Source of the DNA: Eledone cirrhosa
Lineage: Eukaryota
Assembly: GCA_964016885.1 (NCBI GenBank)
Contig: OZ024747.1
Span: 47,554,001-47,618,000 of the forward strand
Length of the DNA: 64,000 bases
Reading direction: 5' to 3'
The position numbers were made by a program, and so were the translations under genes. Of the stretch, positions 19,589-62,862 are shown piece by piece; positions within the stretch are counted from its first letter, which is position 1; the number at the start of each line of letters is the position of its first letter. The notes below the pieces were generated by a model that was not told where the DNA came from, did no database searches, and saw only the letters and a list, made by a program, of their open reading frames with translations.

Positions 19589-21230
19589 GTAAGTTTTATT
19601 AAATATATATCTTTGACATTACCTAGTATTTTTTATTGACTAGAAAGCAAAAAAAAAGAAGTTATATAAAAAAAATTATAACAAGCTTATAAATATTTTG
19701 GTGGTTGTGTGGTGTTTGGCAAAATGTCAAATAAAGATAGAAACAAGTGGAGCCAGCAGTCCTCGACCGCAGAGATGACAAGTGCCTCAACAGAATTACC
19801 CTCGTCTCATTGAAGGAGGTAAATCCCTCATCTGAGAGGCCACATGGTGTGACACGTTCTCTGCCTCCAACTTAGTCACTGGTAGACTGTGACTCTGTTC
19901 TGCCAAGCTCCTCCACAAAATTGGTATGTCAGCAGCTTGTCTGAGGAAGGAGCCCTGCAAGGTGGGATGGTTGTTGCAGTAGGTGTTGCTGGCCATTGTC
20001 CATGGAAATGCCTTTGCGGTTCTGTCAGCTGAAAGATGACTCATGTATACACTGCTCCTTCCAGTTCTTGCTCCAGAATAAATCAATGACCTCTTAATAT
20101 ATCTTTGATTGAAGCAAGCAGATGATAGTTTGAAGGAACAAGATCTTGGCTGTATGAAGACTGCTTCAGTACCCCAGATTTCAGTTTCTGAAATCAACAA
20201 TGTGAGAAGCAGTGTAAGAGCAAGATTTGTTGTGCAACAATACAACTTTTAAAAGTACTCCATACTTCAATTTTTAACTTGTTATGCAACATCTCGTTAT
20301 AATGAGCACTGTTTACTATTGAGCCATTCTCAACTAATTAGACTTTGTGTTTTTCCATCTCTGTGTTTGTATTGTCATTTCTTTATCTCTCTCTCTATAT
20401 ATATAGATATAGATAGATAAATAGATAGATAGATAGTTGATGGCTGAGAAAAAAAAGAGTACTCAATACCGAAGTAGAGTTTAACTATTCATTTTATTAA
20501 TACTCTGGAGTTTCATCTGTCTATCACAGGGCAAAACTCCAGAGTAATAATTGTTTCTACTTTTGGCACAAGGCCAGCAATTACCCCAGTACATTACTGG
20601 TGCTTTATTTTATGGACCCTGTAAGGATGAAAGGCAAAGTTAACCTCGGCAGGATTTGAACTCAGACTGTAAAGGGGCATAACTCTATGCTGCAAAACAT
20701 GGCACTCACCCGCTACTGATACTGCCAATCCCTTATAATACTCACCATTTAGCCTTAATAAAATGAATAGCATAGTGGATAAGGTTTCAATCTCTATATA
20801 GGTAAATATATATACAATATTTATATATATATATATATATCATCATCATCATCATCATCAGCGTTTAACGTCCGTGTTCCACGCTTGCATGGGTTTGGAC
20901 GGGGGTAGTCCCACTTGAGGCAAGAGTGATTGTCTTGCTCGCATAGGACTGTCTGGCAGGTTTTCTACAGTTGGATGCCCTTCCTAACACCAACCACATT
21001 TACAGTGTGGGTCTGGGAGGTTTTTACCGTGTTGCCTACACGGCCACATTACAGCGTGGACTGTGTGTTTTTTTGTCGTGACACCTACACGATCTCATTT
21101 GTTTCGGCCTCGATGGCGCGGCACCAACATAACTTTACATAGAACGGGGTGGTGTGGATCGGGTGGGGGTGGTGGGACGGGGTGTATTTGTTAGAGATGC
21201 CTACTGGCTGGAGTAGGTTTTACTATATAT

Positions 21231-24200
21231 TTAGGTAAGGCGGGTCTTCTCTGTTACTGAGTACCGCCAAAGGTCTCGGTCCAGTGACATTGTCTTGGAG
21301 AGGTGTAAGTGTGTGATGTCGGAGTTTATCAGCTCGTCCCAGGTTTTTCTAGGTCTGCCTATTCCGTGACTACCGTCTATCTTTATTGCCCTGCACTTTG
21401 TTATACAGCTATCGACTTTCATGCGCATCACGTGTCCATACCAACGTAGCCTTCTCTCGAGTAAACAACATCTGATCCCTCTTATCTCTAATTTTTTCCT
21501 TAGTTCGTTTATGCTTTGCCGTTCACGTATATTACTGTTACACATCCAGCGGAGCATGCAAGCTTCGTTCCTCTCTAGTCTGCGTATATCCTCTGCACAC
21601 AATGCCCAGGTCTCACTGCCATGCAGCATTGCTGTTCGTATGCAGGCATCGTACAACCTGCCTTTCATTTTTAGTGAGAACCCTTTAGCAGCTAATAGTG
21701 GTATAAGCTCTCTGAACTTTTTCCAACCAGTTCTGACTCTAGCTACAGTACTTTCAGAGCACCCTCCCCCACTGCTGATTTTATCGCCCAGGTAACGGAA
21801 GCTGTCCACTATTTCTATAGAACCCTCTGCGCAATTGAAAGAGCTAGTAGTTTGTGGGCACTTGCTGCTACTTATTGCACCAGAGCACCGGCCACATGTA
21901 AAATCTATGTTCTTAGTTAGCCTACCTGTGATCCCACTACATCTTTTATGCACCCATACTTTGCATTTAGGACATAAAATGGAGTTTCTACCTACGCCTT
22001 TCCTACACACCGAGCACGACCATTTCCCAGAAGGGACCGCCGCCTTGTTTTCTTTCCTACAAACTAGTACTTTGGTCTTAGCCAGGTTAATTTTAAGTCC
22101 TTTTGACTCTAGGCCGTGCTTCCATGTTTGGAATTTCTTCTCTAGCTCGGCCATTGATTCCGCTATGAGTGTCAGGTCGTCTGCGTATAGGAGTTCCCAT
22201 GGGCAGCCTGTCTTGAACTCCTCTGTTATGGCCTGAAGGGCAATAATAAATAGTAGTGGACTGAGAACAGAGCCCTGATGGACGCCGACTTTTACGCTAA
22301 ACTCTTCACTATATTCGTTGTTAATTCTAACCTTGCTGACTGTTTCTTTATACATGGCTTGTATAGCCCTCACAAGCCATTCGTCAACGCCTAGTTTTCT
22401 AAGAGCCCACCAGATAATGGAGCGGGGGACTCTGTCGAAGGCTTTCTCCAAGTCGACAAAAGCTAAGTAGAGGGGTTTACCTTTAGCTAGGTACTTCTCT
22501 TGTAGTTGTCGTACTATGAAAAGAGCGTCTGTGGTACTTTTGCCTGACACAAACCCGAACTGCATTTCATCTAGGTCAATTCTCTCTCTGATTAGCTGCG
22601 CTATCACTCTTTCCGTGACCTTCATGACCTGGTCGATTAATTTAATGCCTCTATAGTTACTCCTATCTAGGGCGTCTCCTTTACCCTTATAACAGTTAAC
22701 GATGATGCTGCTATGCCAGTCCTTCGGAACAACCCCGTTTTGTACGACTTGGTTAACTATGCGGGTGACCATGGTGTGTCCCACCGTGCCAGATGCCTTC
22801 AGCATCTCAGCAACTATTTCCGAAGGCCCAGCCGCCTTACCAGTCTTCATATCCTTGATTGCCTTACTTATTATACTCCCCTCGACTAACACTGCTGGTC
22901 CCTCTATTGGGTCGATATGGGGGAGACTGCCTTTCTCCCAATTATTCTCCTCATTTAGAAGCCTTTCATAGTGACACTTCCAAGCTACCTTCTTATCAGC
23001 GTCGGTGATGGCAAGTGTGCCATCGTCGTTTAGTACACACTTCTCCCCGACAATATCACGGTTTTCCTTGACGCATTGCCTAGCAATCCTGAACACCTCA
23101 CGTTTTTGGTCATCGCGTTGTAGAACATGCTTGAACTTTCTTTCCTCAGCTTCCCTTCTTGCTAAGTACACTTGTCTCCTAGCTTCCCTCCTGGCCACTT
23201 GATAGTCCTCTCTACTTCCCCCATCCCGCCATACTTTCCAAGCCTGCTTTTTGGCCTTAATTGACCCCTCCACCTTACTGTTCCACCACCATGTTACTCT
23301 CCTCCTGCCTACAGGCCTGCTCCAGCCACAGACCTCGTCTGTCGCCAACAGCAGGTTTGCTTTCAGAAATTCCCACTCTCCCTCTATATTGTCCGACTCT
23401 AAATGTTCTTCCTTACTGTCGAAAGCATCAAGTAATATGCTTTGAAATTTATTCCTGGCTGTGGGGTCCTTTAACTTCCATATTTTCCTCCTGAGGATAG
23501 TCCTCTTCTGTTGTCGAGTACGTCTCGTCCTGACTATGAGGTCGCTAATTATCAGTCTATGTTGGGAGGTGCATTCTTCATGGGGGAGGGATTTAGTGTT
23601 AACAACAGACACTCTGTCACGTCTTCTGGTAAGGATATAATCTACCTGGCTTGTGTGTTCCCCGGATCTATAGGTGATCAGGTGATTGTCACGTTTTTTG
23701 AAGTTAGTGTTACAGATAGTTAGGTTATTTGCATCACAGAATTCCAGGATTCTGGAGCCTTCCTCATTTCTAGTACCAAACCCATAGCCTCCATGGATTT
23801 CGTCGTAGCCGTCACAATGTTGTCCAACGTGACCATTTAGGTCGCCTGCGATAATTATATAGTCACTGTCGGATATTTGGGAGGTAGTTAGCATCAGTGT
23901 CTCATAGAATCTGTCTTTTATAGTGCCGGGCAGTCCGGATTGGGGTGCGTACGCAGATATTACTGTCACCGTAGTTCTATTGAGGACAAGTCGTATTTTA
24001 ATTATTCTGTCGTTCACTCTATTTACGTCTATTATCTTATCTGCCCACTTTTCTGCTACCATGATTCCTACTCCACCCAGCCCATCGTCGTTTCCCACCC
24101 AGAAAAGCTTATAACAACGTTTTTTACCCTCAATGAACCTAGCAGACCCACCCCTCCACCTGGTCTCTTGAATACAACAAACATCGACCTCCTTACGTTC

Positions 24201-24401
24201 AAGCATTTCTACAACCTCGTTAGCGCGACCCTTTAGGGTGCCTACATTTATGGTACCAACTCTGAAGTTTTGGATTGCGTTTGGGGGTTGGGGGCGGTGA
24301 GGGGCGGGGGGCGATGGTGTTATGTTAGCCGTCCGCGGTCGAAACAATGAGGAGTGCTCGCATTCTCGTCCAAGGGGTGAATTTGTCTTTATCTTTGGCA
24401 T
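21231..24401 (-). CDS. Intact RTE ORF: APE endonuclease + reverse transcriptase + internal PHD finger
   Basis: Uninterrupted frame 21231-24593; APE motifs GTINVGTL, CIQETRW, GDLNGH, VDYIL, SQHRL; RT motifs QFGF, DLEKAFD, QGSVLSP, YADD, YLG; candidate starts at ATG 24461 or 24401. Confidence 0.95.
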   Translation of the reverse strand: MPKIKTNSPLGRECEHSSLFRPRTANITPSPPAPHRPQPPNAIQNFRVGTINVGTLKGRANEVVEMLERKEVDVCCIQETRWRGGSARFIEGKKRCYKLFWVGNDDGLGGVGIMVAEKWADKIIDVNRVNDRIIKIRLVLNRTTVTVISAYAPQSGLPGTIKDRFYETLMLTTSQISDSDYIIIAGDLNGHVGQHCDGYDEIHGGYGFGTRNEEGSRILEFCDANNLTICNTNFKKRDNHLITYRSGEHTSQVDYILTRRRDRVSVVNTKSLPHEECTSQHRLIISDLIVRTRRTRQQKRTILRRKIWKLKDPTARNKFQSILLDAFDSKEEHLESDNIEGEWEFLKANLLLATDEVCGWSRPVGRRRVTWWWNSKVEGSIKAKKQAWKVWRDGGSREDYQVARREARRQVYLARREAEERKFKHVLQRDDQKREVFRIARQCVKENRDIVGEKCVLNDDGTLAITDADKKVAWKCHYERLLNEENNWEKGSLPHIDPIEGPAVLVEGSIISKAIKDMKTGKAAGPSEIVAEMLKASGTVGHTMVTRIVNQVVQNGVVPKDWHSSIIVNCYKGKGDALDRSNYRGIKLIDQVMKVTERVIAQLIRERIDLDEMQFGFVSGKSTTDALFIVRQLQEKYLAKGKPLYLAFVDLEKAFDRVPRSIIWWALRKLGVDEWLVRAIQAMYKETVSKVRINNEYSEEFSVKVGVHQGSVLSPLLFIIALQAITEEFKTGCPWELLYADDLTLIAESMAELEKKFQTWKHGLESKGLKINLAKTKVLVCRKENKAAVPSGKWSCSVCRKGVGRNSILCPKCKVWVHKRCSGITGRLTKNIDFTCGRCSGAISSSKCPQTTSSFNCAEGSIEIVDSFRYLGDKISSGGGCSESTVARVRTGWKKFRELIPLLAAKGFSLKMKGRLYDACIRTAMLHGSETWALCAEDIRRLERNEACMLRWMCNSNIRERQSINELRKKLEIRGIRCCLLERRLRWYGHVMRMKVDSCITKCRAIKIDGSHGIGRPRKTWDELINSDITHLHLSKTMSLDRDLWRYSVTEKTRLT

Positions 24402-24525
24402 TGTCGCTGAGCGTCCAGATTTTTCTCTCTCACCTCCACTCTCCAGGATTCCGCAGTCCATCCATCCATCATATATCGTATATCGAAAGGCAACCAGGCA
24501 AGCGATAGTATAGGCCTCTGGTTTC

Positions 24526-24589
24526 TGATTGGTCCGCGTAATAATACTGGTGATACGTGGGGGCTGTTTTATGATTGGTCCACGTAATA
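24526..24589. promoter_or_regulatory. Duplicated 18-mer TGATTGGTCCRCGTAATA (CCAAT box fused to CCACGT/CCGCGT; ERSE-II/UPRE-II-like)
   Basis: ATTGGTCCGCGT at 24528-24539 and ATTGGTCCACGT at 24574-24585, 46 bp apart, in the LINE unique 5' UTR; function inferred only. Confidence 0.55.
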
Positions 24590-24629
24590 GCAATGGTGGT
24601 GTGTGGGGGTGGGAGGGAGGGGTGTTGGG

Positions 24630-27600
24630 TAGCTAGCAAGAAGGTAATGATTGAGATGGGTCTATGCATTTAACAAGCGATTAACAAAAATACAAAATTT
24701 GTTCAGTTAAATACGTCCAAAAACCTAAACGTATTTAGCACTTAATAGGAACAGAAAATGTAGTTTGTTTTAGCGATAGAATGGCTATTTGGACTTGAAA
24801 TACGAAATGAGAGAGAGAGAGGAGAGAGAGATGAAGTCTGTACCTTACGTTTACATGATTTTCGTTCGGACAGCAGGCAAAGAAATGAAATTTGGCGAAG
24901 TGAATTCCTATCATATATTTATAGGGAGAGAGAGAGAGAGAGAGAGGGAGTGCGAGGGTAGGGGGCCACATGATGGCTGTGGGTGTTAGGCGTTTGACCG
25001 CCCCGTGCCTTCGAAGAAGGAAGAAGGAAAGGATTTTGCTTTTTTTTGGGGTTTGAAAATACGTTAGGAATTAAGGTTTGAAAATAGCTAGCAAGAAGGT
25101 AATGATTGAGATGGGTCTATGCATTTAACAAGCGATTAACAAAAATACAAAATTTGTTCAGTTAAATACGTCCAAAAACCTAAACGTATTTAGCACTTAA
25201 TAGGAACAGAAAATGTAGTTTGTTTTAGCGATAGAATGGCTATTTGGACTTGAAATACGAAATGAGAGAGAGAGAGGAGAGAGAGATGAAGTCTGTACCT
25301 TACGTTTACATGATTTTCGTTCGGACAGCAGGCAAAGAAATGAAATTTGGCGAAGTGAATTCCTATCATATATTTATAGGGAGAGAGAGAGAGAGAGAGA
25401 GGGAGTGCGAGGGTAGGGGGCCACATGATGGCTGTGGGTGTTAGGCGTTTGACCGCCCCGTGCCTTCGAAGAAGGAAGAAGGAAAGGATTTTGCTTTTTT
25501 TTGGGGTTTGAAAATACGTTAGGAATTAAGGTTTGAAAATAGCTAGCAAGAAGGTAATGATTGAGATGGGTCTATGCATTTAACAAGCGATTAACAAAAA
25601 TACAAAATTTGTTCAGTTAAATACGTCCAAAAACCTAAACGTATTTAGCACTTAATAGGAACAGAAAATGTAGTTTGTTTTAGCGATAGAATGGCTATTT
25701 GGACTTGAAATACGAAATGAGAGAGAGAGAGGAGAGAGAGATGAAGTCTGTACCTTACGTTTACATGATTTTCGTTCGGACAGCAGGCAAAGAAATGAAA
25801 TTTGGCGAAGTGAATTCCTATCATATATTTATAGGGAGAGAGAGAGAGAGAGAGAGGGAGTGCGAGGGTAGGGGGCCACATGATGGCTGTGGGTGTTAGG
25901 CGTTTGACCGCCCCGTGCCTTCGAAGAAGGAAGAAGGAAAGGATTTTGCTTTTTTTTGGGGTTTGAAAATACGTTAGGAATTAAGGTTTGAAAATAGCTA
26001 GCAAGAAGGTAATGATTGAGATGGGTCTATGCATTTAACAAGCGATTAACAAAAATACAAAATTTGTTCAGTTAAATACGTCCAAAAACCTAAACGTATT
26101 TAGCACTTAATAGGAACAGAAAATGTAGTTTGTTTTAGCGATAGAATGGCTATTTGGACTTGAAATACGAAATGAGAGAGAGAGAGGAGAGAGAGATGAA
26201 GTCTGTACCTTACGTTTACATGATTTTCGTTCGGACAGCAGGCAAAGAAATGAAATTTGGCGAAGTGAATTCCTATCATATATTTATAGGGAGAGAGAGA
26301 GAGAGAGAGAGGGAGTGCGAGGGTAGGGGGCCACATGATGGCTGTGGGTGTTAGGCGTTTGACCGCCCCGTGCCTTCGAAGAAGGAAGAAGGAAAGGATT
26401 TTGCTTTTTTTTGGGGTTTGAAAATACGTTAGGAATTAAGGTTTGAAAATAGCTAGCAAGAAGGTAATGATTGAGATGGGTCTATGCATTTAACAAGCGA
26501 TTAACAAAAATACAAAATTTGTTCAGTTAAATACGTCCAAAAACCTAAACGTATTTAGCACTTAATAGGAACAGAAAATGTAGTTTGTTTTAGCGATAGA
26601 ATGGCTATTTGGACTTGAAATACGAAATGAGAGAGAGAGAGGAGAGAGAGATGAAGTCTGTACCTTACGTTTACATGATTTTCGTTCGGACAGCAGGCAA
26701 AGAAATGAAATTTGGCGAAGTGAATTCCTATCATATATTTATAGGGAGAGAGAGAGAGAGAGAGAGGGAGTGCGAGGGTAGGGGGCCACATGATGGCTGT
26801 GGGTGTTAGGCGTTTGACCGCCCCGTGCCTTCGAAGAAGGAAGAAGGAAAGGATTTTGCTTTTTTTTGGGGTTTGAAAATACGTTAGGAATTAAGGTTTG
26901 AAAATAGCTAGCAAGAAGGTAATGATTGAGATGGGTCTATGCATTTAACAAGCGATTAACAAAAATACAAAATTTGTTCAGTTAAATACGTCCAAAAACC
27001 TAAACGTATTTAGCACTTAATAGGAACAGAAAATGTAGTTTGTTTTAGCGATAGAATGGCTATTTGGACTTGAAATACGAAATGAGAGAGAGAGAGGAGA
27101 GAGAGATGAAGTCTGTACCTTACGTTTACATGATTTTCGTTCGGACAGCAGGCAAAGAAATGAAATTTGGCGAAGTGAATTCCTATCATATATTTATAGG
27201 GAGAGAGAGAGAGAGAGAGAGGGAGTGCGAGGGTAGGGGGCCACATGATGGCTGTGGGTGTTAGGCGTTTGACCGCCCCGTGCCTTCGAAGAAGGAAGAA
27301 GGAAAGGATTTTGCTTTTTTTTGGGGTTTGAAAATACGTTAGGAATTAAGGTTTGAAAATAGCTAGCAAGAAGGTAATGATTGAGAGGGTCTATGCATTT
27401 AACAAGCGATTAACAAAAATACAAAATTTGTTCAGTTAAATACGTCCAAAAACCTAAACGTATTTAGCACTTAATAGGAACAGAAAATGTAGTTTGTTTT
27501 AGCGATAGAATGGCTATTTGGACTTGAAATACGAAATGAGAGAGAGAGAGGAGAGAGAGATGAAGTCTGTACCTTACGTTTACATGATTTTCGTTCGGAC

Positions 27601-30600
27601 AGCAGGCAAAGAAATGAAATTTGGCGAAGTGAATTCCTATCATATATTTATAGGGAGAGAGAGAGAGAGAGAGAGGGAGTGCGAGGGTAGGGGGCCACAT
27701 GATGGCTGTGGGTGTTAGGCGTTTGACCGCCCCGTGCCTTCGAAGAAGGAAGAAGGAAAGGATTTTGCTTTTTTTTGGGGTTTGAAAATACGTTAGGAAT
27801 TAAGGTTTGAAAATAGCTAGCAAGAAGGTAATGATTGAGATGGGTCTATGCATTTAACAAGCGATTAACAAAAATACAAAATTTGTTCAGTTAAATACGT
27901 CCAAAAACCTAAACGTATTTAGCACTTAATAGGAACAGAAAATGTAGTTTGTTTTAGCGATAGAATGGCTATTTGGACTTGAAATACGAAATGAGAGAGA
28001 GAGAGGAGAGAGAGATGAAGTCTGTACCTTACGTTTACATGATTTTCGTTCGGACAGCAGGCAAAGAAATGAAATTTGGCGAAGTGAATTCCTATCATAT
28101 ATTTATAGGGAGAGAGAGAGAGAGAGAGAGGGAGTGCGAGGGTAGGGGGCCACATGATGGCTGTGGGTGTTAGGCGTTTGACCGCCCCGTGCCTTCGAAG
28201 AAGGAAGAAGGAAAGGATTTTGCTTTTTTTTGGGGTTTGAAAATACGTTAGGAATTAAGGTTTGAAAATAGCTAGCAAGAAGGTAATGATTGAGATGGGT
28301 CTATGCATTTAACAAGCGATTAACAAAAATACAAAATTTGTTCAGTTAAATACGTCCAAAAACCTAAACGTATTTAGCACTTAATAGGAACAGAAAATGT
28401 AGTTTGTTTTAGCGATAGAATGGCTATTTGGACTTGAAATACGAAATGAGAGAGAGAGAGGAGAGAGAGATGAAGTCTGTACCTTACGTTTACATGATTT
28501 TCGTTCGGACAGCAGGCAAAGAAATGAAATTTGGCGAAGTGAATTCCTATCATATATTTATAGGGAGAGAGAGAGAGAGAGAGAGGGAGTGCGAGGGTAG
28601 GGGGCCACATGATGGCTGTGGGTGTTAGGCGTTTGACCGCCCCGTGCCTTCGAAGAAGGAAGAAGGAAAGGATTTTGCTTTTTTTTGGGGTTTGAAAATA
28701 CGTTAGGAATTAAGGTTTGAAAATAGCTAGCAAGAAGGTAATGATTGAGATGGGTCTATGCATTTAACAAGCGATTAACAAAAATACAAAATTTGTTCAG
28801 TTAAATACGTCCAAAAACCTAAACGTATTTAGCACTTAATAGGAACAGAAAATGTAGTTTGTTTTAGCGATAGAATGGCTATTTGGACTTGAAATACGAA
28901 ATGAGAGAGAGAGAGGAGAGAGAGATGAAGTCTGTACCTTACGTTTACATGATTTTCGTTCGGACAGCAGGCAAAGAAATGAAATTTGGCGAAGTGAATT
29001 CCTATCATATATTTATAGGGAGAGAGAGAGAGAGAGAGAGGGAGTGCGAGGGTAGGGGGCCACATGATGGCTGTGGGTGTTAGGCGTTTGACCGCCCCGT
29101 GCCTTCGAAGAAGGAAGAAGGAAAGGATTTTGCTTTTTTTTGGGGTTTGAAAATACGTTAGGAATTAAGGTTTGAAAATAGCTAGCAAGAAGGTAATGAT
29201 TGAGAGGGTCTATGCATTTAACAAGCGATTAACAAAAATACAAAATTTGTTCAGTTAAATACGTCCAAAAACCTAAACGTATTTAGCACTTAATAGGAAC
29301 AGAAAATGTAGTTTGTTTTAGCGATAGAATGGCTATTTGGACTTGAAATACGAAATGAGAGAGAGAGAGGAGAGAGAGATGAAGTCTGTACCTTACGTTT
29401 ACATGATTTTCGTTCGGACAGCAGGCAAAGAAATGAAATTTGGCGAAGTGAATTCCTATCATATATTTATAGGGAGAGAGAGAGAGAGAGAGAGGGAGTG
29501 CGAGGGTAGGGGGCCACATGATGGCTGTGGGTGTTAGGCGTTTGACCGCCCCGTGCCTTCGAAGAAGGAAGAAGGAAAGGATTTTGCTTTTTTTGGGGGT
29601 TTGAAAATACGTTAGGAATTAAGGTTTGAAAATAGCTAGCAAGAAGGTAATGATTGAGATGGGTCTATGCATTTAACAAGCGATTAACAAAAATACAAAA
29701 TTTGTTCAGTTAAATACGTCCAAAAACCTAAACGTATTTAGCACTTAATAGGAACAGAAAATGTAGTTTGTTTTAGCGATAGAATGGCTATTTGGACTTG
29801 AAATACGAAATGAGAGAGAGAGAGGAGAGAGAGATGAAGTCTGTACCTTACGTTTACATGATTTTCGTTCGGACAGCAGGCAAAGAAATGAAATTTGGCG
29901 AAGTGAATTCCTATCATATATTTATAGGGAGAGAGAGAGAGAGAGAGAGGGAGTGCGAGGGTAGGGGGCCACATGATGGCTGTGGGTGTTAGGCGTTTGA
30001 CCGCCCCGTGCCTTCGAAGAAGGAAGAAGGAAAGGATTTTGCTTTTTTTTGGGGTTTGAAAATACGTTAGGAATTAAGGTTTGAAAATAGCTAGCAAGAA
30101 GGTAATGATTGAGATGGGTCTATGCATTTAACAAGCGATTAACAAAAATACAAAATTTGTTCAGTTAAATACGTCCAAAAACCTAAACGTATTTAGCACT
30201 TAATAGGAACAGAAAATGTAGTTTGTTTTAGCGATAGAATGGCTATTTGGACTTGAAATACGAAATGAGAGAGAGAGAGGAGAGAGAGATGAAGTCTGTA
30301 CCTTACGTTTACATGATTTTCGTTCGGACAGCAGGCAAAGAAATGAAATTTGGCGAAGTGAATTCCTATCATATATTTATAGGGAGAGAGAGAGAGAGAG
30401 AGAGGGAGTGCGAGGGTAGGGGGCCACATGATGGCTGTGGGTGTTAGGCGTTTGACCGCCCCGTGCCTTCGAAGAAGGAAGAAGGAAAGGATTTTGCTTT
30501 TTTTTGGGGTTTGAAAATACGTTAGGAATTAAGGTTTGAAAATAGCTAGCAAGAAGGTAATGATTGAGAGGGTCTATGCATTTAACAAGCGATTAACAAA

Positions 30601-31556
30601 AATACAAAATTTGTTCAGTTAAATACGTCCAAAAACCTAAACGTATTTAGCACTTAATAGGAACAGAAAATGTAGTTTGTTTTAGCGATAGAATGGCTAT
30701 TTGGACTTGAAATACGAAATGAGAGAGAGAGAGGAGAGAGAGATGAAGTCTGTACCTTACGTTTACATGATTTTCGTTCGGACAGCAGGCAAAGAAATGA
30801 AATTTGGCGAAGTGAATTCCTATCATATATTTATAGGGAGAGAGAGAGAGAGAGAGAGGGAGTGCGAGGGTAGGGGGCCACATGATGGCTGTGGGTGTTA
30901 GGCGTTTGACCGCCCCGTGCCTTCGAAGAAGGAAGAAGGAAAGGATTTTGCTTTTTTTGGGGTTTGAAAATACGTTAGGAATTAAGGTTTGAAAATAGCT
31001 AGCAAGAAGGTAATGATTGAGAGGGTCTATGCATTTAACAAGCGATTAACAAAAATACAAAATTTGTTCAGTTAAATACGTCCAAAAACCTAAACGTATT
31101 TAGCACTTAATAGGAACAGAAAATGTAGTTTGTTTTAGCGATAGAATGGCTATTTGGACTTGAAATACGAAATGAGAGAGAGAGAGGAGAGAGAGATGAA
31201 GTCTGTACCTTACGTTTACATGATTTTCGTTCGGACAGCAGGCAAAGAAATGAAATTTGGCGAAGTGAATTCCTATCATATATTTATAGGGAGAGAGAGA
31301 GAGAGAGAGAGGGAGTGCGAGGGTAGGGGGCCACATGATGGCTGTGGGTGTTAGGCGTTTGACCGCCCCGTGCCTTCGAAGAAGGAAGAAGGAAAGGATT
31401 TTGCTTTTTTTGGGGTTTGAAAATACGTTAGGAATTAAGGTTTGAAAATAGCTAGCAAGAAGGTAATGATTGAGAGGGTCTATGCATTTAACAAGCGATT
31501 AACAAAAATACAAAATTTGTTCAGTTAAATACGTCCAAAAACCTAAACGTATTTAG
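24630..31556 (-). repeat. Tandem array, 15 full monomers (453-455 bp) plus 108 bp, collinear with the RTE
   Basis: Units start TAGCTAGCAAGAAGG at 24630, 25085 ... 31449; near-identical. Confidence 0.98.
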
Positions 31557-34500
31557 ACCCTCTCAATCATTACCTTCTTGCTAGCTATTTTCAAACCTTA
31601 ATTCCTAACGTATTTTCAAACCCCAAAAAAAGCAAAATCCTTTCCTTCTTCCTTCTTCGAAGGCACGGGGCGGTCAAACGCCTAACACCCACAGCCATCA
31701 TGTGGCCCCCTACCCTCGCACTCCCTCTCTCTCTCTCTCTCTCTCCCTATAAATATATGATAGGAATTCACTTCGCCAAATTTCATTTCTTTGCCTGCTG
31801 TCCGAACGAAAATCATGTAAACGTAAGGTACAGACTTCATCTCTCTCTCCTCTCTCTCTCTCATTTCGTATTTCAAGTCCAAATAGCCATTCTATCGCTA
31901 AAACAAACTACATTTTCTGTTCCTATTAAGTGCTAAATACGTTTAGGTTTTTGGACGTATTTAACTGAACAAATTTTGTATTTTTGTTAATCGCTTGTTA
32001 AATGCATAGACCCTCTCAATCATTACCTTCTTGCTAGCTATTTTCAAACCTTAATTCCTAACGTATTTTCAAACCCCAAAAAAAGCAAAATCCTTTCCTT
32101 CTTCCTTCTTCGAAGGCACGGGGCGGTCAAACGCCTAACACCCACAGCCATCATGTGGCCCCCTACCCTCGCACTCCCTCTCTCTCTCTCTCTCTCTCCC
32201 TATAAATATATGATAGGAATTCACTTCGCCAAATTTCATTTCTTTGCCTGCTGTCCGAACGAAAATCATGTAAACGTAAGGTACAGACTTCATCTCTCTC
32301 TCCTCTCTCTCTCTCATTTCGTATTTCAAGTCCAAATAGCCATTCTATCGCTAAAACAAACTACATTTTCTGTTCCTATTAAGTGCTAAATACGTTTAGG
32401 TTTTTGGACGTATTTAACTGAACAAATTTTGTATTTTTGTTAATCGCTTGTTAAATGCATAGACCCATCTCAATCATTACCTTCTTGCTAGCTATTTTCA
32501 AACCTTAATTCCTAACGTATTTTCAAACCCCAAAAAAAAGCAAAATCCTTTCCTTCTTCCTTCTTCGAAGGCACGGGGCGGTCAAACGCCTAACACCCAC
32601 AGCCATCATGTGGCCCCCTACCCTCGCACTCCCTCTCTCTCTCTCTCTCTCTCCCTATAAATATATGATAGGAATTCACTTCGCCAAATTTCATTTCTTT
32701 GCCTGCTGTCCGAACGAAAATCATGTAAACGTAAGGTACAGACTTCATCTCTCTCTCCTCTCTCTCTCTCATTTCGTATTTCAAGTCCAAATAGCCATTC
32801 TATCGCTAAAACAAACTACATTTTCTGTTCCTATTAAGTGCTAAATACGTTTAGGTTTTTGGACGTATTTAACTGAACAAATTTTGTATTTTTGTTAATC
32901 GCTTGTTAAATGCATAGACCCTCTCAATCATTACCTTCTTGCTAGCTATTTTCAAACCTTAATTCCTAACGTATTTTCAAACCCCAAAAAAAGCAAAATC
33001 CTTTCCTTCTTCCTTCTTCGAAGGCACGGGGCGGTCAAACGCCTAACACCCACAGCCATCATGTGGCCCCCTACCCTCGCACTCCCTCTCTCTCTCTCTC
33101 TCTCTCCCTATAAATATATGATAGGAATTCACTTCGCCAAATTTCATTTCTTTGCCTGCTGTCCGAACGAAAATCATGTAAACGTAAGGTACAGACTTCA
33201 TCTCTCTCTCCTCTCTCTCTCTCATTTCGTATTTCAAGTCCAAATAGCCATTCTATCGCTAAAACAAACTACATTTTCTGTTCCTATTAAGTGCTAAATA
33301 CGTTTAGGTTTTTGGACGTATTTAACTGAACAAATTTTGTATTTTTGTTAATCGCTTGTTAAATGCATAGACCCTCTCAATCATTACCTTCTTGCTAGCT
33401 ATTTTCAAACCTTAATTCCTAACGTATTTTCAAACCCCAAAAAAAGCAAAATCCTTTCCTTCTTCCTTCTTCGAAGGCACGGGGCGGTCAAACGCCTAAC
33501 ACCCACAGCCATCATGTGTCCCCCTACCCTCGCACTCCCTCTCTCTCTCTCTCTCTCTCCCTATAAATATATGATAGGAATTCACTTCGCCAAATTTCAT
33601 TTCTTTGCCTGCTGTCCGAACGAAAATCATGTAAACGTAAGGTACAGACTTCATCTCTCTCTCCTCTCTCTCTCTCATTTCGTATTTCAAGTCCAAATAG
33701 CCATTCTATCGCTAAAACAAACTACATTTTCTGTTCCTATTAAGTGCTAAATACGTTTAGGTTTTTGGACGTATTTAACTGAACAAATTTTGTATTTTTG
33801 TTAATCGCTTGTTAAATGCATAGACCCTCTCAATCATTACCTTCTTGCTAGCTATTTTCAAACCTTAATTCCTAACGTATTTTCAAACCCCCAAAAAAGC
33901 AAAATCCTTTCCTTCTTCCTTCTTCGAAGGCACGGGGCGGTCAAACGCCTAACACCCACAGCCATCATGTGGCCCCCTACCCTCGCACTCCCTCTCTCTC
34001 TCTCTCTCTCTCCCTATAAATATATGATAGGAATTCACTTCGCCAAATTTCATTTCTTTGCCTGCTGTCCGAACGAAAATCATGTAAACGTAAGGTACAG
34101 ACTTCATCTCTCTCTCCTCTCTCTCTCTCATTTCGTATTTCAAGTCCAAATAGCCATTCTATCGCTAAAACAAACTACATTTTCTGTTCCTATTAAGTGC
34201 TAAATACGTTTAGGTTTTTGGACGTATTTAACTGAACAAATTTTGTATTTTTGTTAATCGCTTGTTAAATGCATAGACCCTCTCAATCATTACCTTCTTG
34301 CTAGCTATTTTCAAACCTTAATTCCTAACGTATTTTCAAACCCCAAAAAAAGCAAAATCCTTTCCTTCTTCCTTCTTCGAAGGCACGGGGCGGTCAAACG
34401 CCTAACACCCACAGCCATCATGTGGCCCCCTACCCTCGCACTCCCTCTCTCTCTCTCTCTCTCTCCCTATAAATATATGATAGGAATTCACTTCGCCAAA

Positions 34501-36015
34501 TTTCATTTCTTTGCCTGCTGTCCGAACGAAAATCATGTAAACGTAAGGTACAGACTTCATCTCTCTCTCCTCTCTCTCTCTCATTTCGTATTTCAAGTCC
34601 AAATAGCCATTCTATCGCTAAAACAAACTACATTTTCTGTTCCTATTAAGTGCTAAATACGTTTAGGTTTTTGGACGTATTTAACTGAACAAATTTTGTA
34701 TTTTTGTTAATCGCTTGTTAAATGCATAGACCCTCTCAATCATTACCTTCTTGCTAGCTATTTTCAAACCTTAATTCCTAACGTATTTTCAAACCCCAAA
34801 AAAAGCAAAATCCTTTCCTTCTTCCTTCTTCGAAGGCACGGGGCGGTCAAACGCCTAACACCCACAGCCATCATGTGGCCCCCTACCCTCGCACTCCCTC
34901 TCTCTCTCTCTCTCTCTCCCTATAAATATATGATAGGAATTCACTTCGCCAAATTTCATTTCTTTGCCTGCTGTCCGAACGAAAATCATGTAAACGTAAG
35001 GTACAGACTTCATCTCTCTCTCCTCTCTCTCTCTCATTTCGTATTTCAAGTCCAAATAGCCATTCTATCGCTAAAACAAACTACATTTTCTGTTCCTATT
35101 AAGTGCTAAATACGTTTAGGTTTTTGGACGTATTTAACTGAACAAATTTTGTATTTTTGTTAATCGCTTGTTAAATGCATAGACCCTCTCAATCATTACC
35201 TTCTTGCTAGCTATTTTCAAACCTTAATTCCTAACGTATTTTCAAACCCCAAAAAAAGCAAAATCCTTTCCTTCTTCCTTCTTCGAAGGCACGGGGCGGT
35301 CAAACGCCTAACACCCACAGCCATCATGTGGCCCCCTACCCTCGCACTCCCTCTCTCTCTCTCTCTCTCTCCCTATAAATATATGATAGGAATTCACTTC
35401 GCCAAATTTCATTTCTTTGCCTGCTGTCCGAACGAAAATCATGTAAACGTAAGGTACAGACTTCATCTCTCTCTCCTCTCTCTCTCTCATTTCGTATTTC
35501 AAGTCCAAATAGCCATTCTATCGCTAAAACAAACTACATTTTCTGTTCCTATTAAGTGCTAAATACGTTTAGGTTTTTGGACGTATTTAACTGAACAAAT
35601 TTTGTATTTTTGTTAATCGCTTGTTAAATGCATAGACCCATCTCAATCATTACCTTCTTGCTAGCTATTTTCAAACCTTAATTCCTAACGTATTTTCAAA
35701 CCCCAAAAAAAAGCAAAATCCTTTCCTTCTTCCTTCTTCGAAGGCACGGGGCGGTCAAACGCCTAACACCCACAGCCATCATGTGGCCCCCTACCCTCGC
35801 ACTCCCTCTCTCTCTCTCTCTCTCTCTCCCTATAAATATATGATAGGAATTCACTTCGCCAAATTTCATTTCTTTGCCTGCTGTCCGAACGAAAATCATG
35901 TAAACGTAAGGTACAGACTTCATCTCTCTCTCCTCTCTCTCTCTCATTTCGTATTTCAAGTCCAAATAGCCATTCTATCGCTAAAACAAACTACATTTTC
36001 TGTTCCTATTAAGTG

Positions 36016-36018
<3 letters not shown>
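31554..36018 (+). repeat. Inverted portion of the monomer array (~9.8 units of 453-457 bp)
   Basis: Reverse complement of the same monomer; junction TTTAG|ACCC with TAG microhomology; ends AAGTGCTA then (TA)n. Confidence 0.98.
35806..35911 (+). promoter_or_regulatory. Putative core promoter present in every monomer (last copy shown): (CT)n, TATAAA, Inr, downstream donor-like site
   Basis: TATAAATA at 35831, YYANWYY match CCAAATT with its A 30 nt downstream of the TATA start, AAC|GTAAGG at 35906; oriented in the LINE-sense direction of the monomer. Confidence 0.45.
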
Positions 36019-36074
<56 letters not shown>

Positions 36075-52946: not shown

Positions 52947-54876
52947 CAGGGCTTGGCAACCTTTTGGAGAGAGGGGGCCAAACAGCTATGCAGTGTCATG
53001 GAGGAAGGCCATGTTATTAAATATGTAAATAAATTTTCTGGAGGTTTAAAGCAAAACAAGGAATTTAATATAATTTTATTTTAACAAGGCCCCTTATTTT
53101 ACTGCAGGAATAACAAAAAAAAAAGAAAAAAAAACTACAAACACATTCAACAAAAAAAAAAAAAAAAATTCCTTATTTTACTGCAGGAATAACAGAAAAA
53201 CAACTATTATCACAATCAACAAAAAAAAGCAAATTCCTTGCTACAAACGAAATACAGTTAGAAATGGTAAATGATTTAATGAGACACTTGTTTCTGCTTA
53301 TTGTGCGATAACTTCTCCACATCGGGTGAAATATTTGTCGATGACAGGAGCAAAACATCATCCAGGTGGTCGTCACGCAACCTTGTTCTTAAATGACTTT
53401 TAGTATATTTCATTTTGGAAAAAAGTTGTTCACAAGCATATGTACTTCCAAATAATGATATCATCAGTTTCGTATTAGTCAAGATGTTTTTATATTTTCC
53501 GCTTGGCAATATATATTTCTTGTAGAAGTCAGCAGTGGATTCGAACTGAAATTTTGATTTCAAAGATTCGTCGCACTGTAACTCAATTAACTCCAACTGA
53601 TATTCTTCTGCCACTTGCTCCACATCTGTTTCGTAAGGAGTACCAAATAACTTAAATAGAGTTCCATATTGCTGGAAGTCAGCAAAACGAGATGAAAACT
53701 CGCTTCTCAAATCCTTAATAGAGCTCACAAAGATGTCTGGTATTATATCTCTCTTGTGATTTTGGAGACTTGGGAAATGAGAGTAGTTTCCTTTTTGAAG
53801 TTGTGATTCCCACAGTCGAAGTTTTCTCTCAAAAGCAGTAATTTGACCAAACATCTCAAATACAACCTTGTTCAAAATTCAAAGTGTTCATGTGGGTCGT
53901 GATGTCCACTAAAAAAGCTAACTTGACAACCCACTGTGGATCCTGAAAGTAAGAATTATCTTGGTCTTTGCTCTCTAAAATCATAAAAATTTCTTCTCTC
54001 AAGGCATATACTCATTCTATCACTTTTCCACGGCTAAGCCATCGAACATTTGAAAAATATGTAAGGTCGCCATACTCTGCTTCAATTTGTTTTAGAAATT
54101 CTTGAAACTGGCGGTGATTTAGTCCTCTTGACAGAAAAAATTCACTGTTTTCACGACCACTGTCATGATGTCCTTAAAATTCAGTGACTTTGCACATAAT
54201 GCTTCTTGATGAATAATGCAATGAAGTTTGATTAGTTTTTTATCAATACCGATGTGGTTTTGGAGCAATGCAACAAACCCCTTTTTCTCTCCAACCATTG
54301 CTGGTGCTCCATCTGTGATTACTCCAGAAATCTTTGATAAATCCAGATTCATTTCGGTAATCCATTTTATTATGCTTTCCAAAATATCTGCTCCAGTGTT
54401 AGTGGCCTTCGTAGGAATCAATTGTACAAATTCTTCCACAATATCAAATGTTGGTGTTACACCCCTCACAAACACTGCAAGTTGACAAGTATCCTTCATA
54501 TCTGTGGTTTCATTGATAGCAATGGAATAATACTCCAGATTATTTAAAATTATTTGACTGGAACAAAAACACATACATGAAATCACAGGAAATAATAATA
54601 CAGGTGATATAATGCTTGGCGGAAAGCCCAGAAAAAGATGGATAAGAGGAAATAATAATAAATGGAAAATATAATAAGGTTACAAAGGTATCTGTAAATA
54701 TATACGGTATGAGCAGCGATTTGTGATGGGCATCAGGTCGGCACAACCTTGAAGTGAACTACTGTATCTGTATTCGATACTAATTAGATAATTAGTGTCC
54801 AGTGTAAGATGGCGGGCCGGACAAAAATCACTCGAGGGCCGGATGTGGCCCGTGGGCCGGGGGTTGCCGACCCCTG
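52947..54876 (-). mobile_element. Internally deleted hAT (Buster/Charlie/SPIN-like) DNA transposon with broken transposase
   Basis: TIRs CAGGGCTTGGCAACC / CAGGGGTCGGCAACC, 8-bp TSD GTCTATGT/GTCTATTT; peptides TDGAPAMVG, HCIIHQEALC, VRWLSRG, FGSTYACEQLFSKMK. Confidence 0.9.
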
Positions 54877-60444: not shown

Positions 60445-61164
60445 CATTTACGTTACTCTACATTTACTATTATATTTTCACAGTAAAGGCTTTACCCCAC
60501 ATAATATCTCACATAACATTTACATTACTCTATATATACTATTGTATTTTCATGGTAAAGGCTTTACCTCACATAATATCTCACATAGCATTTACGTTAC
60601 TCTACATTTACTATTGTATTTTCATGGTAAAGGCTATACCTCACATAATATCTCACATAACATTTACATTACTCTACATTTACTATTGTATTTTCATGGT
60701 AAAGGCTATACCTCACATAATATCTCACATAGCATTTACGTTACTCTACATTTACTATTGTATTTTCATGGTAAAGGCTATACCTCACATAATATCTCAC
60801 ATGGCATTTACGTTACTCTACATTTACTATTGTATTTTCACAGTAAAGGCTTTACCTCACATAATATCTCACATAACATTTACATTACTCTATATATACT
60901 ATTATATTTTCATAGTAAAGGCTTTACCCCACATAATATCTCACATAACATTTACATTACTCTATATATACTATTGTATTTTCATGGTAAAGGCTTTACC
61001 TCACATAATATCTCACATAACATTTACATTACTCTATATATACTATTGTATTTTCACAGTAAAGGCTTTACCTCACATAATATCTCACATAGCATTTACG
61101 TTACTCTACATTTACTATTGTATTTTCATGGTAAAGGCTTTACCTCACATAATATCTCACATAA
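60445..61164. repeat. 72-bp minisatellite x10 derived from the piggyBac MITE left end
   Basis: Preceded by TTAA-CCCTTTAG; unit CATTTACRTTACTCTA...AAAGGCTWTACCYCACATAATATCTCACATAR matches the MITE interior. Confidence 0.9.
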
Positions 61165-61377
61165 CATCTCGTATACGAGAGACGTCTGTTGACGTGTGTG
61201 AACAAGCTCGGCTACCGAGTCGGATTTACTTACTCAAAAGTGAGTTTTGATTAATTTTTTTATACTGTAATATACGTTAACCCCTTGCCTTGGTCGTCAA
61301 ACTTTGAGTTTATTTATTTTCGCCCCTTTTTGGGGCGAATTTTCCAGTTAAAAATTTATTACGGCAAACTAATAGAA

Positions 61378-62862
61378 ATGGACGGAATTTTCACATCTCA
61401 TCCTAACGTGAAAGCCACGCCCCCTAAGAAAGGTGATACAGAGAAGCTAGAAGCACAAGGCTCTAAGTCTTCCCTCCTCACTTCTGCAAAAGAAACGTGG
61501 AACACGGAATTAAAAGAAAAATTTGTAAAAATGGGTGAAAACCCAGAAAGTCACATAAACGCAGACAAAAACAACAACGACAATAACAGCAATAGTCACA
61601 ACACCAACCAAGGAAAAAATAACGATAACACCAAACAAAGCGAACCTACTACTGGTGCCTCCTTTGCACAGGCGGTCCGGAAAACACAGACCTGCAAGCA
61701 ACTGGACATTACAACTCTGAGAGAAAAGATGAAGGAAGCAAAACAGTATGTAACTTTCAAAGAAGGAGGAGACTTCACAATCACCTCCCCACAAGAAATC
61801 AAAAGAGACACGACACTAAGAACGATATCTTTCAGAACAATTTCCAACATAACAAGGAAACCAGCTCAATTATCCCAAAAAGAAATTGAGCTGGTCCTAA
61901 AAAATGTGTGGAGTGATATATCGTTCATACAAAAAGGGCCACTCTATGGGAATATAACGGTGCTTATGAAGGATCAATTGACGGCCAGGAAATACTCTGT
62001 GGCGCCAATTGTTTCCAAGCTACACACATTTTTCCCCACATATTTAGGGAAAAGAACGCAGAAAATAAGGGTCTCCGGAATCCGGCCAAATGCATGCATT
62101 TCCTGGGTACTAACAGGATTTTTAGAAGACGAGGACGGAATCCTCTCAGTAGGAGAAGTCACAACAGACGTTTTCGGCGGTTTGAGCGTGGAGGTTCTGG
62201 TCCAAATGAGACCAGAACGAATAGCTAGAATACCACAGAGGGTGTTCCTCGATGGAGAAACATTTATATACATTTCAGCCGAGGATAGGAGGCCCATATG
62301 TTACTACTGTTCAAGCAGGGGTCATCTAAGGGCTGCCTGTCCTCAATTGACAAAAAAAAAGGCTCTTTTGCCTACACCCCACACACCACCACCACCACCA
62401 CAACAACAACAAGAACAACACGGAAAAATAACACAAGACACGGCCCCACCCAAAACAAGTCCAAAAACACACACAAACACAACAAAACCCCAAAATACAC
62501 CACTACCCGACAGCACGGACGAGGACCCAGCTGAAACGGCACCTAGTGACGAAGAGGGGGGGGGACCCTTCCAACCTGTAAAAAGGAAAAAAAGAAAGCA
62601 CCACTCGAACATAAACGAAACAAACACACAACCACCAACAAAAACAAAACAAACAGAACAAACAAAATCCGCCCCACCCCAAAACATAACACATACAACA
62701 AAACGTAAGCACACACAAGAACAACAAACAAACACAACACAAATAAAACAGTATACATACATTAACACAAATAACAAAGAACTAGTAAAAACAATACACA
62801 AAGACCCTTCGGTGGAAACTGAAGGGCAATTCTTTGCAACGCGGCCAACAAACCGCATTTAA
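61378..62862 (+). CDS. Tx1-type ORF1 (CCHC zinc knuckle nucleic-acid chaperone); probably extends to 63089 through a frameshift
   Basis: SFAQAV motif, CYYCSSRGHLRAAC knuckle, basic VKRKKRK, Pro/Thr-rich tail. Confidence 0.85.
   Translation: MDGIFTSHPNVKATPPKKGDTEKLEAQGSKSSLLTSAKETWNTELKEKFVKMGENPESHINADKNNNDNNSNSHNTNQGKNNDNTKQSEPTTGASFAQAVRKTQTCKQLDITTLREKMKEAKQYVTFKEGGDFTITSPQEIKRDTTLRTISFRTISNITRKPAQLSQKEIELVLKNVWSDISFIQKGPLYGNITVLMKDQLTARKYSVAPIVSKLHTFFPTYLGKRTQKIRVSGIRPNACISWVLTGFLEDEDGILSVGEVTTDVFGGLSVEVLVQMRPERIARIPQRVFLDGETFIYISAEDRRPICYYCSSRGHLRAACPQLTKKKALLPTPHTPPPPPQQQQEQHGKITQDTAPPKTSPKTHTNTTKPQNTPLPDSTDEDPAETAPSDEEGGGPFQPVKRKKRKHHSNINETNTQPPTKTKQTEQTKSAPPQNITHTTKRKHTQEQQTNTTQIKQYTYINTNNKELVKTIHKDPSVETEGQFFATRPTNRI

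Follow-up and report, generated by a model that had tools for sequence, protein, structure and literature searches.

The window analysed here is the whole 64,000-nt stretch of the Eledone cirrhosa assembly GCA_964016885.1 at OZ024747.1:47,554,001-47,618,000 (forward strand), and all coordinates below are positions within it. It holds a LINE on the minus strand whose intact ORF, with endonuclease (PF03372/PF14529) and reverse transcriptase (PF00078) domains, is present as originally predicted. The prediction of a unique 5' UTR of about 230 bp running straight into tandem monomers is also confirmed: the UTR measures 228 nt, and at 24630/24629 the TAGCTA of the monomer meets the CCCAACACC of the UTR (Table 1). 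The array contains 25 monomers, the number expected, although they are near-identical rather than identical, being 453-455 bp long with only four variable alignment columns; there are four distinct sequences among the 15 full forward units and five among the nine full inverted ones. The array is likewise real but is not the single 11.4-kb run first described, as the outer ten of its 25 units are inverted. TRF calls two arrays (24630-31556, 15.2 copies; 31554-36022, 9.9 copies), and the GC skew changes sign at about 31.5 kb, the boundary between the two blocks. There are no N bases in the window, and an Rfam scan of 24200-25600, covering the UTR and two monomers, gave no match at E<=1.

Table 1. 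Parts of the element and its flanking tracts, in window coordinates.
Feature	Position	Strand	Remark
(TA)n target tract, 3' side of the element	20795..20840	none	
3' UTR	20841..21230	-	390 nt, (GAT)n tail at its end
Single intact ORF	21231..24401	-	1056 aa; AP endonuclease, reverse transcriptase, PHD-like zinc finger
Unique 5' UTR, tether-like	24402..24629	-	228 nt; includes a 46-bp repeat in which CCAAT occurs twice
Forward monomer block	24630..31556	-	15 complete monomers (453-455 bp each) and a partial one (positions 347-455)
TATA-box motif TATAAAT, monomer 1	24917..24923	-	monomer position 162; putative function
Inversion junction	31554..31556	none	3-nt microhomology TAG/CTA; monomer positions 347-349 and 421-423
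Inverted monomer block	31554..36018	+	positions 421-455, then 9 full monomers, then positions 1-349
(TA)27 tract, 5' side of the element	36017..36071	none	shares TA with the monomer

We take the element to be of RTE type from its architecture and its motifs. For RTE-clade LINEs, target-site duplications of about 10-12 bp would be expected. In the present family, matching repeats other than pure TA were found at both ends of 10 of 99 loci, versus 2.0 +/- 1.3 in shuffled pairs; they are 17-46 nt long, and the insertion targets are mostly (TA)n. The window LINE has a single ORF with AP endonuclease and reverse transcriptase and lacks ORF1, with no second ORF of at least 150 aa upstream on the same strand within the element. 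Its microsatellite-like 3' tail, (GAT)n in this copy and its siblings, is a feature of the RTE clade (PMC6007223). The 120 listed of 168 homologues, at up to 54% identity, carry no clade names. With one ORF and a (GAT)n tail, as opposed to two ORFs and poly(A), the element works like a rodent monomer-plus-tether L1 while itself falling outside L1.

Across the family, the monomer is fixed to the 5' UTR at one junction and has evolved together with the LINE. The exact monomer-UTR junction occurs 162 times genome-wide (control, 0), and between loci the number of monomers, each about 450-580 bases long with a GC content of 39%, ranges from under 1 to about 101; these counts support the structure originally proposed, an RTE with a modular, amplifiable 5' end in which arrays adjoin the UTR at a constant point. 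As in rodents, a unique tether, here 228 nt long, links the variable tandem monomers with the ORF. Older subfamilies (84-95% body identity) bear diverged homologous units, some in tandem, and monomer type tracks the tree of LINE bodies. Array lengths were taken from the 100 listed junction loci of the 162: 38 are under 500 bp, 72 are under 1 kb, and 11 reach 5 kb or more (5-48 kb, at least 10 units). The longest, at 47.7 kb and about 101 units, belongs to a 51-kb element with an open 1057-aa ORF. A ceiling of 10-11 kb on array length was considered and dropped when longer arrays (14.9, about 17 and 47.7 kb) were found. Within the first kb, array ends occur at a rate of 0.8-2.3 per kb, which drops to 0.1-0.2 per kb past 2 kb and points to two populations of arrays. 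The 5' ends are scattered over monomer positions, mostly beside (TA)n, which fits truncated insertion, and no 5' end position is common to the long arrays. Bounding (TA)n tracts had been attributed to every copy in the window; both are present at this locus, but with (TA)4+ within 30 nt of 74 of 96 5' flanks in the family they are common rather than universal.

We consider it probable, though well short of certain, that the locus holds a very young, intact RTE-type LINE with promoter-like monomers that are few at insertion, that some arrays of the family expand in place, and that the outer ten units of this copy were inverted. Starting from a monomer joined to the UTR at the fixed junction, transcription from each monomer would begin about 30 nt past its TATA box. 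Every monomer contains the TATA motif, which places the predicted start at monomer position 192 (window position 24893), and the monomer is likely to act as a repeatable, or spare, promoter, as in mouse LINE-1. Because such a start lies inside the monomer, a daughter copy would keep a promoter only when it inherits more than one unit. For a common truncation site at the start of transcription, as in the rodent-type 5' UTR, the 5' ends give equivocal evidence: monomer positions 191-197 contain six of 101 ends where 1.6 would be expected (P = 0.005 if this window is taken by itself), but 63% of simulations place six ends in some 7-nt window by chance, and the most populated stretch, positions 382-388 with eight ends, lies away from the predicted start. 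Copies do have truncated-type 5' ends, most with less than 1 kb of array, and growth after insertion, probably through unequal DNA exchange, would restock the units lost to truncation.

Evidence on this growth comes from the homogeneity of the arrays. In 22 arrays with at least five units, the 80,560 sites compared hold 8 private singleton substitutions, where the private rate of LINE bodies would predict 51 (P about 1e-13), a six-fold deficit of singletons relative to the bodies of the same elements; array-fixed private substitutions in the same arrays numbered 3, versus 4.2 expected for one founder unit. For 21 of 26 long arrays, the modal monomer is absent from all other fetched loci. Two marker variants of the window copy likewise occur nowhere else in the assembly (24 and 12 matches, all here), and both are found in the forward and inverted blocks alike. 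As the arrays are homogeneous, mostly private to their loci and poor in singletons, each was re-amplified from about one founder unit. Two long arrays stop at 200-N gaps, and assembly polishing or collapse could have erased singleton variants and distorted copy number. Shared variants are interspersed through the 100-unit array, block repeats of 4, 8 and 12 units lie inside arrays, and triplications of 1867 and 1547 bp at two loci (L156, L208) take in flanking DNA; on the strength of the 100-unit array and these two triplications, we favour DNA-level growth after insertion. Older copies do not have longer arrays (Spearman -0.03, P = 0.78, a value that predates the extension of three arrays). 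Arrays of 12-30 units are present even in copies whose bodies carry 0-1 private mutations, which requires either fast growth or long arrays at insertion. An exact 450-bp unit is common to three young loci (L085, L140 and L182), two of which have the same near-to-far change of unit type, indicating that several units can pass through RNA. A 38-unit array at C4:256.17 Mb was examined as a donor of locus L050 and rejected, since no unit is identical between them.

It is possible, if on balance doubtful, that reverse transcription itself makes or carries the array, through either a transcript of at least 15 kb or template jumps from one or two units, with the inversion as a record of twin priming. 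The first of these routes, in which RNA of 15.2 kb or more from a donor with at least 25 units is copied from both target ends, strikes us as unlikely. The inversion extends exactly to the 5' end of the element, its two breakpoints fall side by side on the monomer (347-349), which chance would bring about in some 2% of cases, and there is microhomology of 2-3 nt at both junctions (TA with the target, TAG/CTA inside); adjacent breakpoints and junction microhomology are described for twin priming in the available part of PMC2912911. On the RNA, the outer end of the inverted segment would adjoin the start of the non-inverted one, both including 347-349. The presence of both private variants in both blocks and the long arrays of very young copies also agree with a long RNA. 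However, a donor with the variants of the window copy is absent from the assembly, the order of variants requires just 4-5 collinear units before inversion, and the 51-kb element is hard to attribute to one round of reverse transcription. Nor does inversion recur among insertions of the family: it is absent from all 179 body copies with an intact 3' end (a figure that may include overlapping loci twice) and present in one of 107 arrays examined; in cell assays, 5' inversion is almost confined to human L1, according to the available text of PMC4245944. The RNA of more than 15 kb in the original prediction stays conjectural, given variants found nowhere else and arrays with signs of growth in place.

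Since one breakpoint lies at a self-complementary (TA)n tract, inversion in situ would yield an identical product. Within the account of in-place growth that we prefer, the chance that the inversion arose through twin priming, from an RNA of at least 4-5 monomers, is roughly even; for a flip in situ, using the 3-nt inverted repeats at the margin of (TA)n, it is somewhat below even, and for an assembly error it is slim. Contigs of four sequencing runs gave no bridging piece for the inversion junction among those listed, and over 20400-25084 no information on an empty allele; both results count neither way.

Slightly less likely than the long transcript is the second route, in which the reverse transcriptase builds a fresh clonal array at insertion by repeated jumps from the RNA 5' end to a downstream monomer. 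Such jumps would accommodate the single-founder statistics, the long arrays in copies without private mutations, a monomer 1 unlike the remaining units at four loci (L055, L065, L136, L155), and an out-of-register 19-nt duplication where the unit type changes at L182. Against it stand the multi-unit block repeats, interspersed variants and flank-containing triplications, all of which are DNA-level signatures. R2 provides a documented example of template jumping (work cited in the available part of PMC2912911); we found no case from this RTE-type clade in the literature searched.

We give very little weight to the other original proposal, 5' transduction, in which a satellite of independent origin upstream would be carried along by the LINE. 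Arrays do attain satellite size (47.7 kb), a 3-unit piece (L206) has no adjoining LINE, and one monomer class is known from 100 listed of 260 matches, but the junction is fixed in 162 copies, monomer type follows the body tree, and the older subfamilies hold diverged homologues. L206, moreover, matches L187 exactly in one unit and also in the type of satellite next to it, and looks displaced from there. Among the first 100 of 336 matches listed, all 19 monomer clusters lie at a LINE; of 11 fetched clusters without the exact junction, nine adjoin a LINE body, one ends at an assembly gap and one is L206. Because no independent, LINE-free source array was found among the clusters inspected, 5' transduction is not supported. 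An assembly artefact behind the inversion or copy number at the window locus is just as improbable: a 15-kb repeat of near-identical units is difficult to assemble and other arrays stop at gaps, but this sequence has no N, its breakpoints are complementary rather than mirror-image, and its private variants are spread across both blocks. The family-level findings are independent of this locus.

The closest known system is rodent L1. Rodent L1 has monomers and a tether of about 250 bp (available text of PMC5381506), and the original prediction cited mouse L1 as a precedent with typically a few units of about 200 bp; the precedent exists but is closer than that, as mouse arrays reach a maximum of 50 monomers, with long arrays ascribed to unequal crossing-over (available text of PMC6454616). 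The available parts of the rodent reports describe a variable 5' tandem array with a unique piece of about 230-250 bp leading to the ORF, as well as 5' ends truncated within a monomer and rare very long arrays (PMC5381506, PMC6454616, PMC9022269), all as found here. In contrast, the octopus element is a one-ORF, RTE-type LINE with a TATA motif in a monomer of 450-580 bp and 39% GC. Of mouse L1 copies, 99% are described as having at most 10 monomers, whereas 11 of 100 octopus arrays have at least 10, up to about 101; the 50-unit mouse array is not homogeneous, whereas octopus arrays are nearly clonal and locus-private.

Human L1 twin priming, as far as described in the available parts of PMC2912911 and PMC4245944, likewise gives an inverted 5' part and a non-inverted 3' part with adjacent breakpoints and microhomology at both junctions (PMC2912911). 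It affects about 30% of human L1 insertions (PMC2912911, PMC4245944) versus 0 of 179 body copies here, and the octopus inversion differs in sitting inside a tandem array with one breakpoint at (TA)n. RTE-2_OV is another octopus full-length, single-ORF RTE with endonuclease, reverse transcriptase and zinc finger, and is apparently active (PMC9115989); by description only, it differs in having 1109 aa, UTRs of about 600 nt and a microsatellite from the ORF end, and the available main text of that paper uses neither "monomer" nor "tandem". The available part of PMC13282606 likewise does not use the word "monomer". The literature searched (outside Repbase, Dfam and subscription journals) yielded no account of a 5' array of monomers in either RTE or cephalopod LINEs. 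The A-modules of Dictyostelium TRE5-A occur in tandem. TRE5-A is comparable as a non-LTR element headed by a 5' module, in its case a promoter-active one, but differs in that the module is 200 bp long and the element has two ORFs and is targeted to tRNA genes (available text of PMC3159450).

The family shows that a LINE of an unrelated type can have the same 5' design, and that satellite arrays form while they are still part of intact elements. How monomers lost at truncated insertion are replaced is still open in mouse L1, according to the available text of PMC6454616. In the octopus family, more than 160 loci are very young and have arrays of 0-100 units that are clonal and carry marks of their own locus, so that growth in place and growth by reverse transcription can be separated by comparing alleles between individuals. 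If the inversion does reflect twin priming of a long RNA, it would extend both that mechanism and the known template length of LINEs, and would provide a twin-priming record in a LINE clade in which 5' inversions are hardly known. If reverse transcription makes or carries the array, each insertion would seed a locus-private satellite of up to 48 kb.

The original prediction of an intact LINE running straight into a monomer array is borne out at 20841-36018, where a 1056-aa frame is preceded by a unique 228-nt 5' UTR that directly abuts tandem units (monomers) of 453-455 bp, and (TA)n tracts lie at both ends, bounding array and LINE together as proposed. The further description of about 25 identical monomers in one array holds in part: the units are near-identical, with only four variable alignment columns, but they do not share a single orientation. 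The outer block is reversed relative to the LINE, a change that had been overlooked. In the encoded RT protein, the PHD-like finger is located after the RT core and is common to many unnamed homologues (40-54% identity). Elsewhere in the window (see the table), the 72-bp repeats and the 535-aa ORF may be the tandemly repeated 5' end and the ORF1 of a different LINE, and the broken reading frames are what we take to be a probable hAT-type DNA transposase.

Features of the array-bearing LINE copy and of the rest of the window
Feature	Position	Strand or setting
3' UTR, 390 nt, including (GAT)n tail	20841-21230	minus
Single open frame, 1056 aa: endonuclease, RT, PHD-like finger	24401-21231	minus
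Forward block, 15.2 units in LINE sense	24630-31556	minus
Inverted block, 9.9 units	31554-36018	opposite to LINE
5'-truncated copy of same LINE family, 96% identity	12142-14207	beside (TA)n
5'-truncated copy of same LINE family, 99.6% identity	37853-38098	beside (TA)n
5'-truncated copy of same LINE family, 94% identity	38233-41113	beside (TA)n
72-bp repeat, ten copies, immediately ahead of 535-aa ORF	60445-61167	
535-aa ORF, CCHC zinc-knuckle-like motif, no Pfam match	61255-62862	
Broken reading frames, weak DUF4371 match	53276-54679	minus
199-bp SINE-like repeat, three tandem copies; very abundant genome-wide	941-1522	

Whether arrays abut the LINE 5' UTR genome-wide is answered by the 3.0-Gb assembly, in which the exact boundary between monomer and 5' UTR occurs 162 times (control, 0), the monomer-to-monomer junction 744 times and the ORF start 1029 times. 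Array lengths, taken from the 100 listed of the 162 junction loci with long arrays extended and one cut by a gap, differ between loci: the median is 587 bp and the maximum 47.7 kb, with 38 of 100 below 500 bp, 72 below 1 kb and 11 at 5 kb or more. Among the first 100 ORF starts listed, 14 have the exact junction. Of the other 86, 40 were fetched: at 21, the sequence immediately upstream matches the monomer by BLAST, 4 belong to copies truncated at the UTR, and 15 belong to older copies (84-94% identity) whose upstream sequence has diverged. A mid-monomer word has 336 matches; the first 100 of these contain 19 clusters, every one of which adjoins a LINE. Of 11 clusters that lack the exact junction, 9 adjoin a LINE body, one stops at a gap and one (L206, discussed below) appears to be a displaced piece. 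The alternative reading, in which a LINE mobilises an upstream satellite by 5' transduction, fails on these counts; because nearly all of the clusters inspected, which are part of the genome's total, adjoin LINE bodies, an independent satellite is not needed. The 5' array is a real, family-wide feature.

Sub-monomer tandem units also occur at the family's 5' end, measuring 236, 122 and 125 bp at loci L084, L097 and L128 and 38 and 57 bp at L207 and L136. New repeat periods emerge easily there.

Every monomer carries TATAAAT at position 162, followed 30 nt downstream by a CA dinucleotide. Five of the 15 older copies were aligned with the window copy and five closer copies (two additional rows did not align), and these five retain the TATA-like motif and its neighbours. 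The 5' ends falling at monomer positions 191-197 number 6 of 101 versus 1.6 expected, an excess that is non-significant when all such 7-nt intervals are considered. Position, motif, persistence of the motif in older subfamilies and likeness to rodent elements suggest that the monomer is a putative promoter.

Bodies, the LINE parts without the array, are full-length in 101 of 107 cases, with 0-0.5% private substitutions; the window copy has 1 in 3170 sites. Units are near-identical inside each array, and their length varies across loci (450-580 bp). In 22 arrays of at least five units, with microsatellite columns excluded and L158, L159 and L187 at that point only partly fetched, we count 8 private singleton substitutions in 80,560 sites, where the private rate of the bodies predicts 51; assembly polishing could have lowered the observed count. 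Array-fixed substitutions absent elsewhere number 3 in these arrays, versus 4.2 expected for one founder unit per array. In 21 of 26 long arrays, the most frequent unit is absent from all other fetched loci, and the window copy's two marker variants, present in both blocks, are confined to it assembly-wide. Arrays so homogeneous and so private to their loci therefore imply re-amplification at each step of descent.

Such re-amplification probably takes the form of growth in DNA after insertion. Loci L156 and L208 contain triplications of 1867 and 1547 bp, with near-identical units, that take in the element's 5' flank together with some of its monomer array; repeated blocks of 4, 8 and 12 units occur within arrays; and shared variants are interspersed, as is typical of satellite turnover, in a 100-unit array that heads an open 1057-aa frame. 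Per kb, array ends are ten times as frequent in the first kb as past 2 kb, a contrast that suggests two classes, short as inserted and expanded. Against growth in DNA, array length shows no correlation with age, 12-30 units are found in copies with 0-1 private mutations, and an exact unit is common to three young loci, two of them with the same polarity of types. Inheritance of the array through a long RNA seems to us unlikely, its rebuilding by template jumps slightly more so, and all three processes can coexist.

The longest array, the 100-unit one mentioned above (L187 with L194-L198, G000:C4:234451881-234503414), spans 47.7 kb, contains about 101 units, precedes an intact LINE and starts beside a 227-bp satellite. 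L206 (G000:C4:212282500-212289499), a (TA)n-bordered piece of 3 units lying 22 Mb away in opposite orientation, has a unit identical to one of L187, continues into a related satellite and looks like the distal end of that array, displaced from it. The pair may reflect a 22-Mb inversion with one breakpoint in the array, or a scaffolding effect. Separately, the 139 reverse-strand genome matches that one monomer class has beyond those listed point to one or more further arrays of great length.

Within the window array, the forward block starts at monomer position 347, the outward end of the inverted block, adjoining (TA)27, is position 349, and at the inner junction positions 347-349 are linked to 421-423 via TAG/CTA. 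With the distal block flipped back, the 25 units form one unbroken array whose 5' junction is ordinary. No piece among the listed contigs of four public sequencing runs bridges the inner junction, a result that weighs neither for nor against the inversion. Since two junction types are present in both blocks alike, at least 4-5 units were collinear before the inversion. A conservative in-situ inversion would yield an identical sequence, given the self-complementarity of (TA)n and the pairing of TAG with CTA at the breakpoints, and the L187/L206 pair suggests that family arrays can break by DNA rearrangement. Twin priming of an RNA, whose geometry as described in PMC2912911 matches that of this inversion, would imply a template at least about 6 kb long, 15 kb being the upper reading; however, none of 179 3'-intact body copies of the family is inverted, and in cell assays inversions of this kind arose almost exclusively with human L1 (PMC4245944).

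The rodent L1 5' UTR, as outlined in PMC5381506, consists of tandem monomers (about 200 bp in mouse, 650 bp in rat) plus a ~250-bp tether. Mouse L1 promoters average 2.7-3.1 units, with at most 10 in 99% and 50 in the longest, and long arrays are attributed to unequal crossing-over (PMC6454616); a second monomer increases promoter activity (PMC9022269). The window element works alike, yet it is no L1 member; its architecture and tail point to an RTE-type LINE. It differs in length and UTRs from octopus RTE-2_OV, whose description in the main text of PMC9115989 mentions no monomers, and our literature searches turned up no account of monomer arrays at the 5' end of any RTE or cephalopod LINE. 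A family-wide 5' monomer array in an RTE-type LINE is a variation on the known rodent L1 design.
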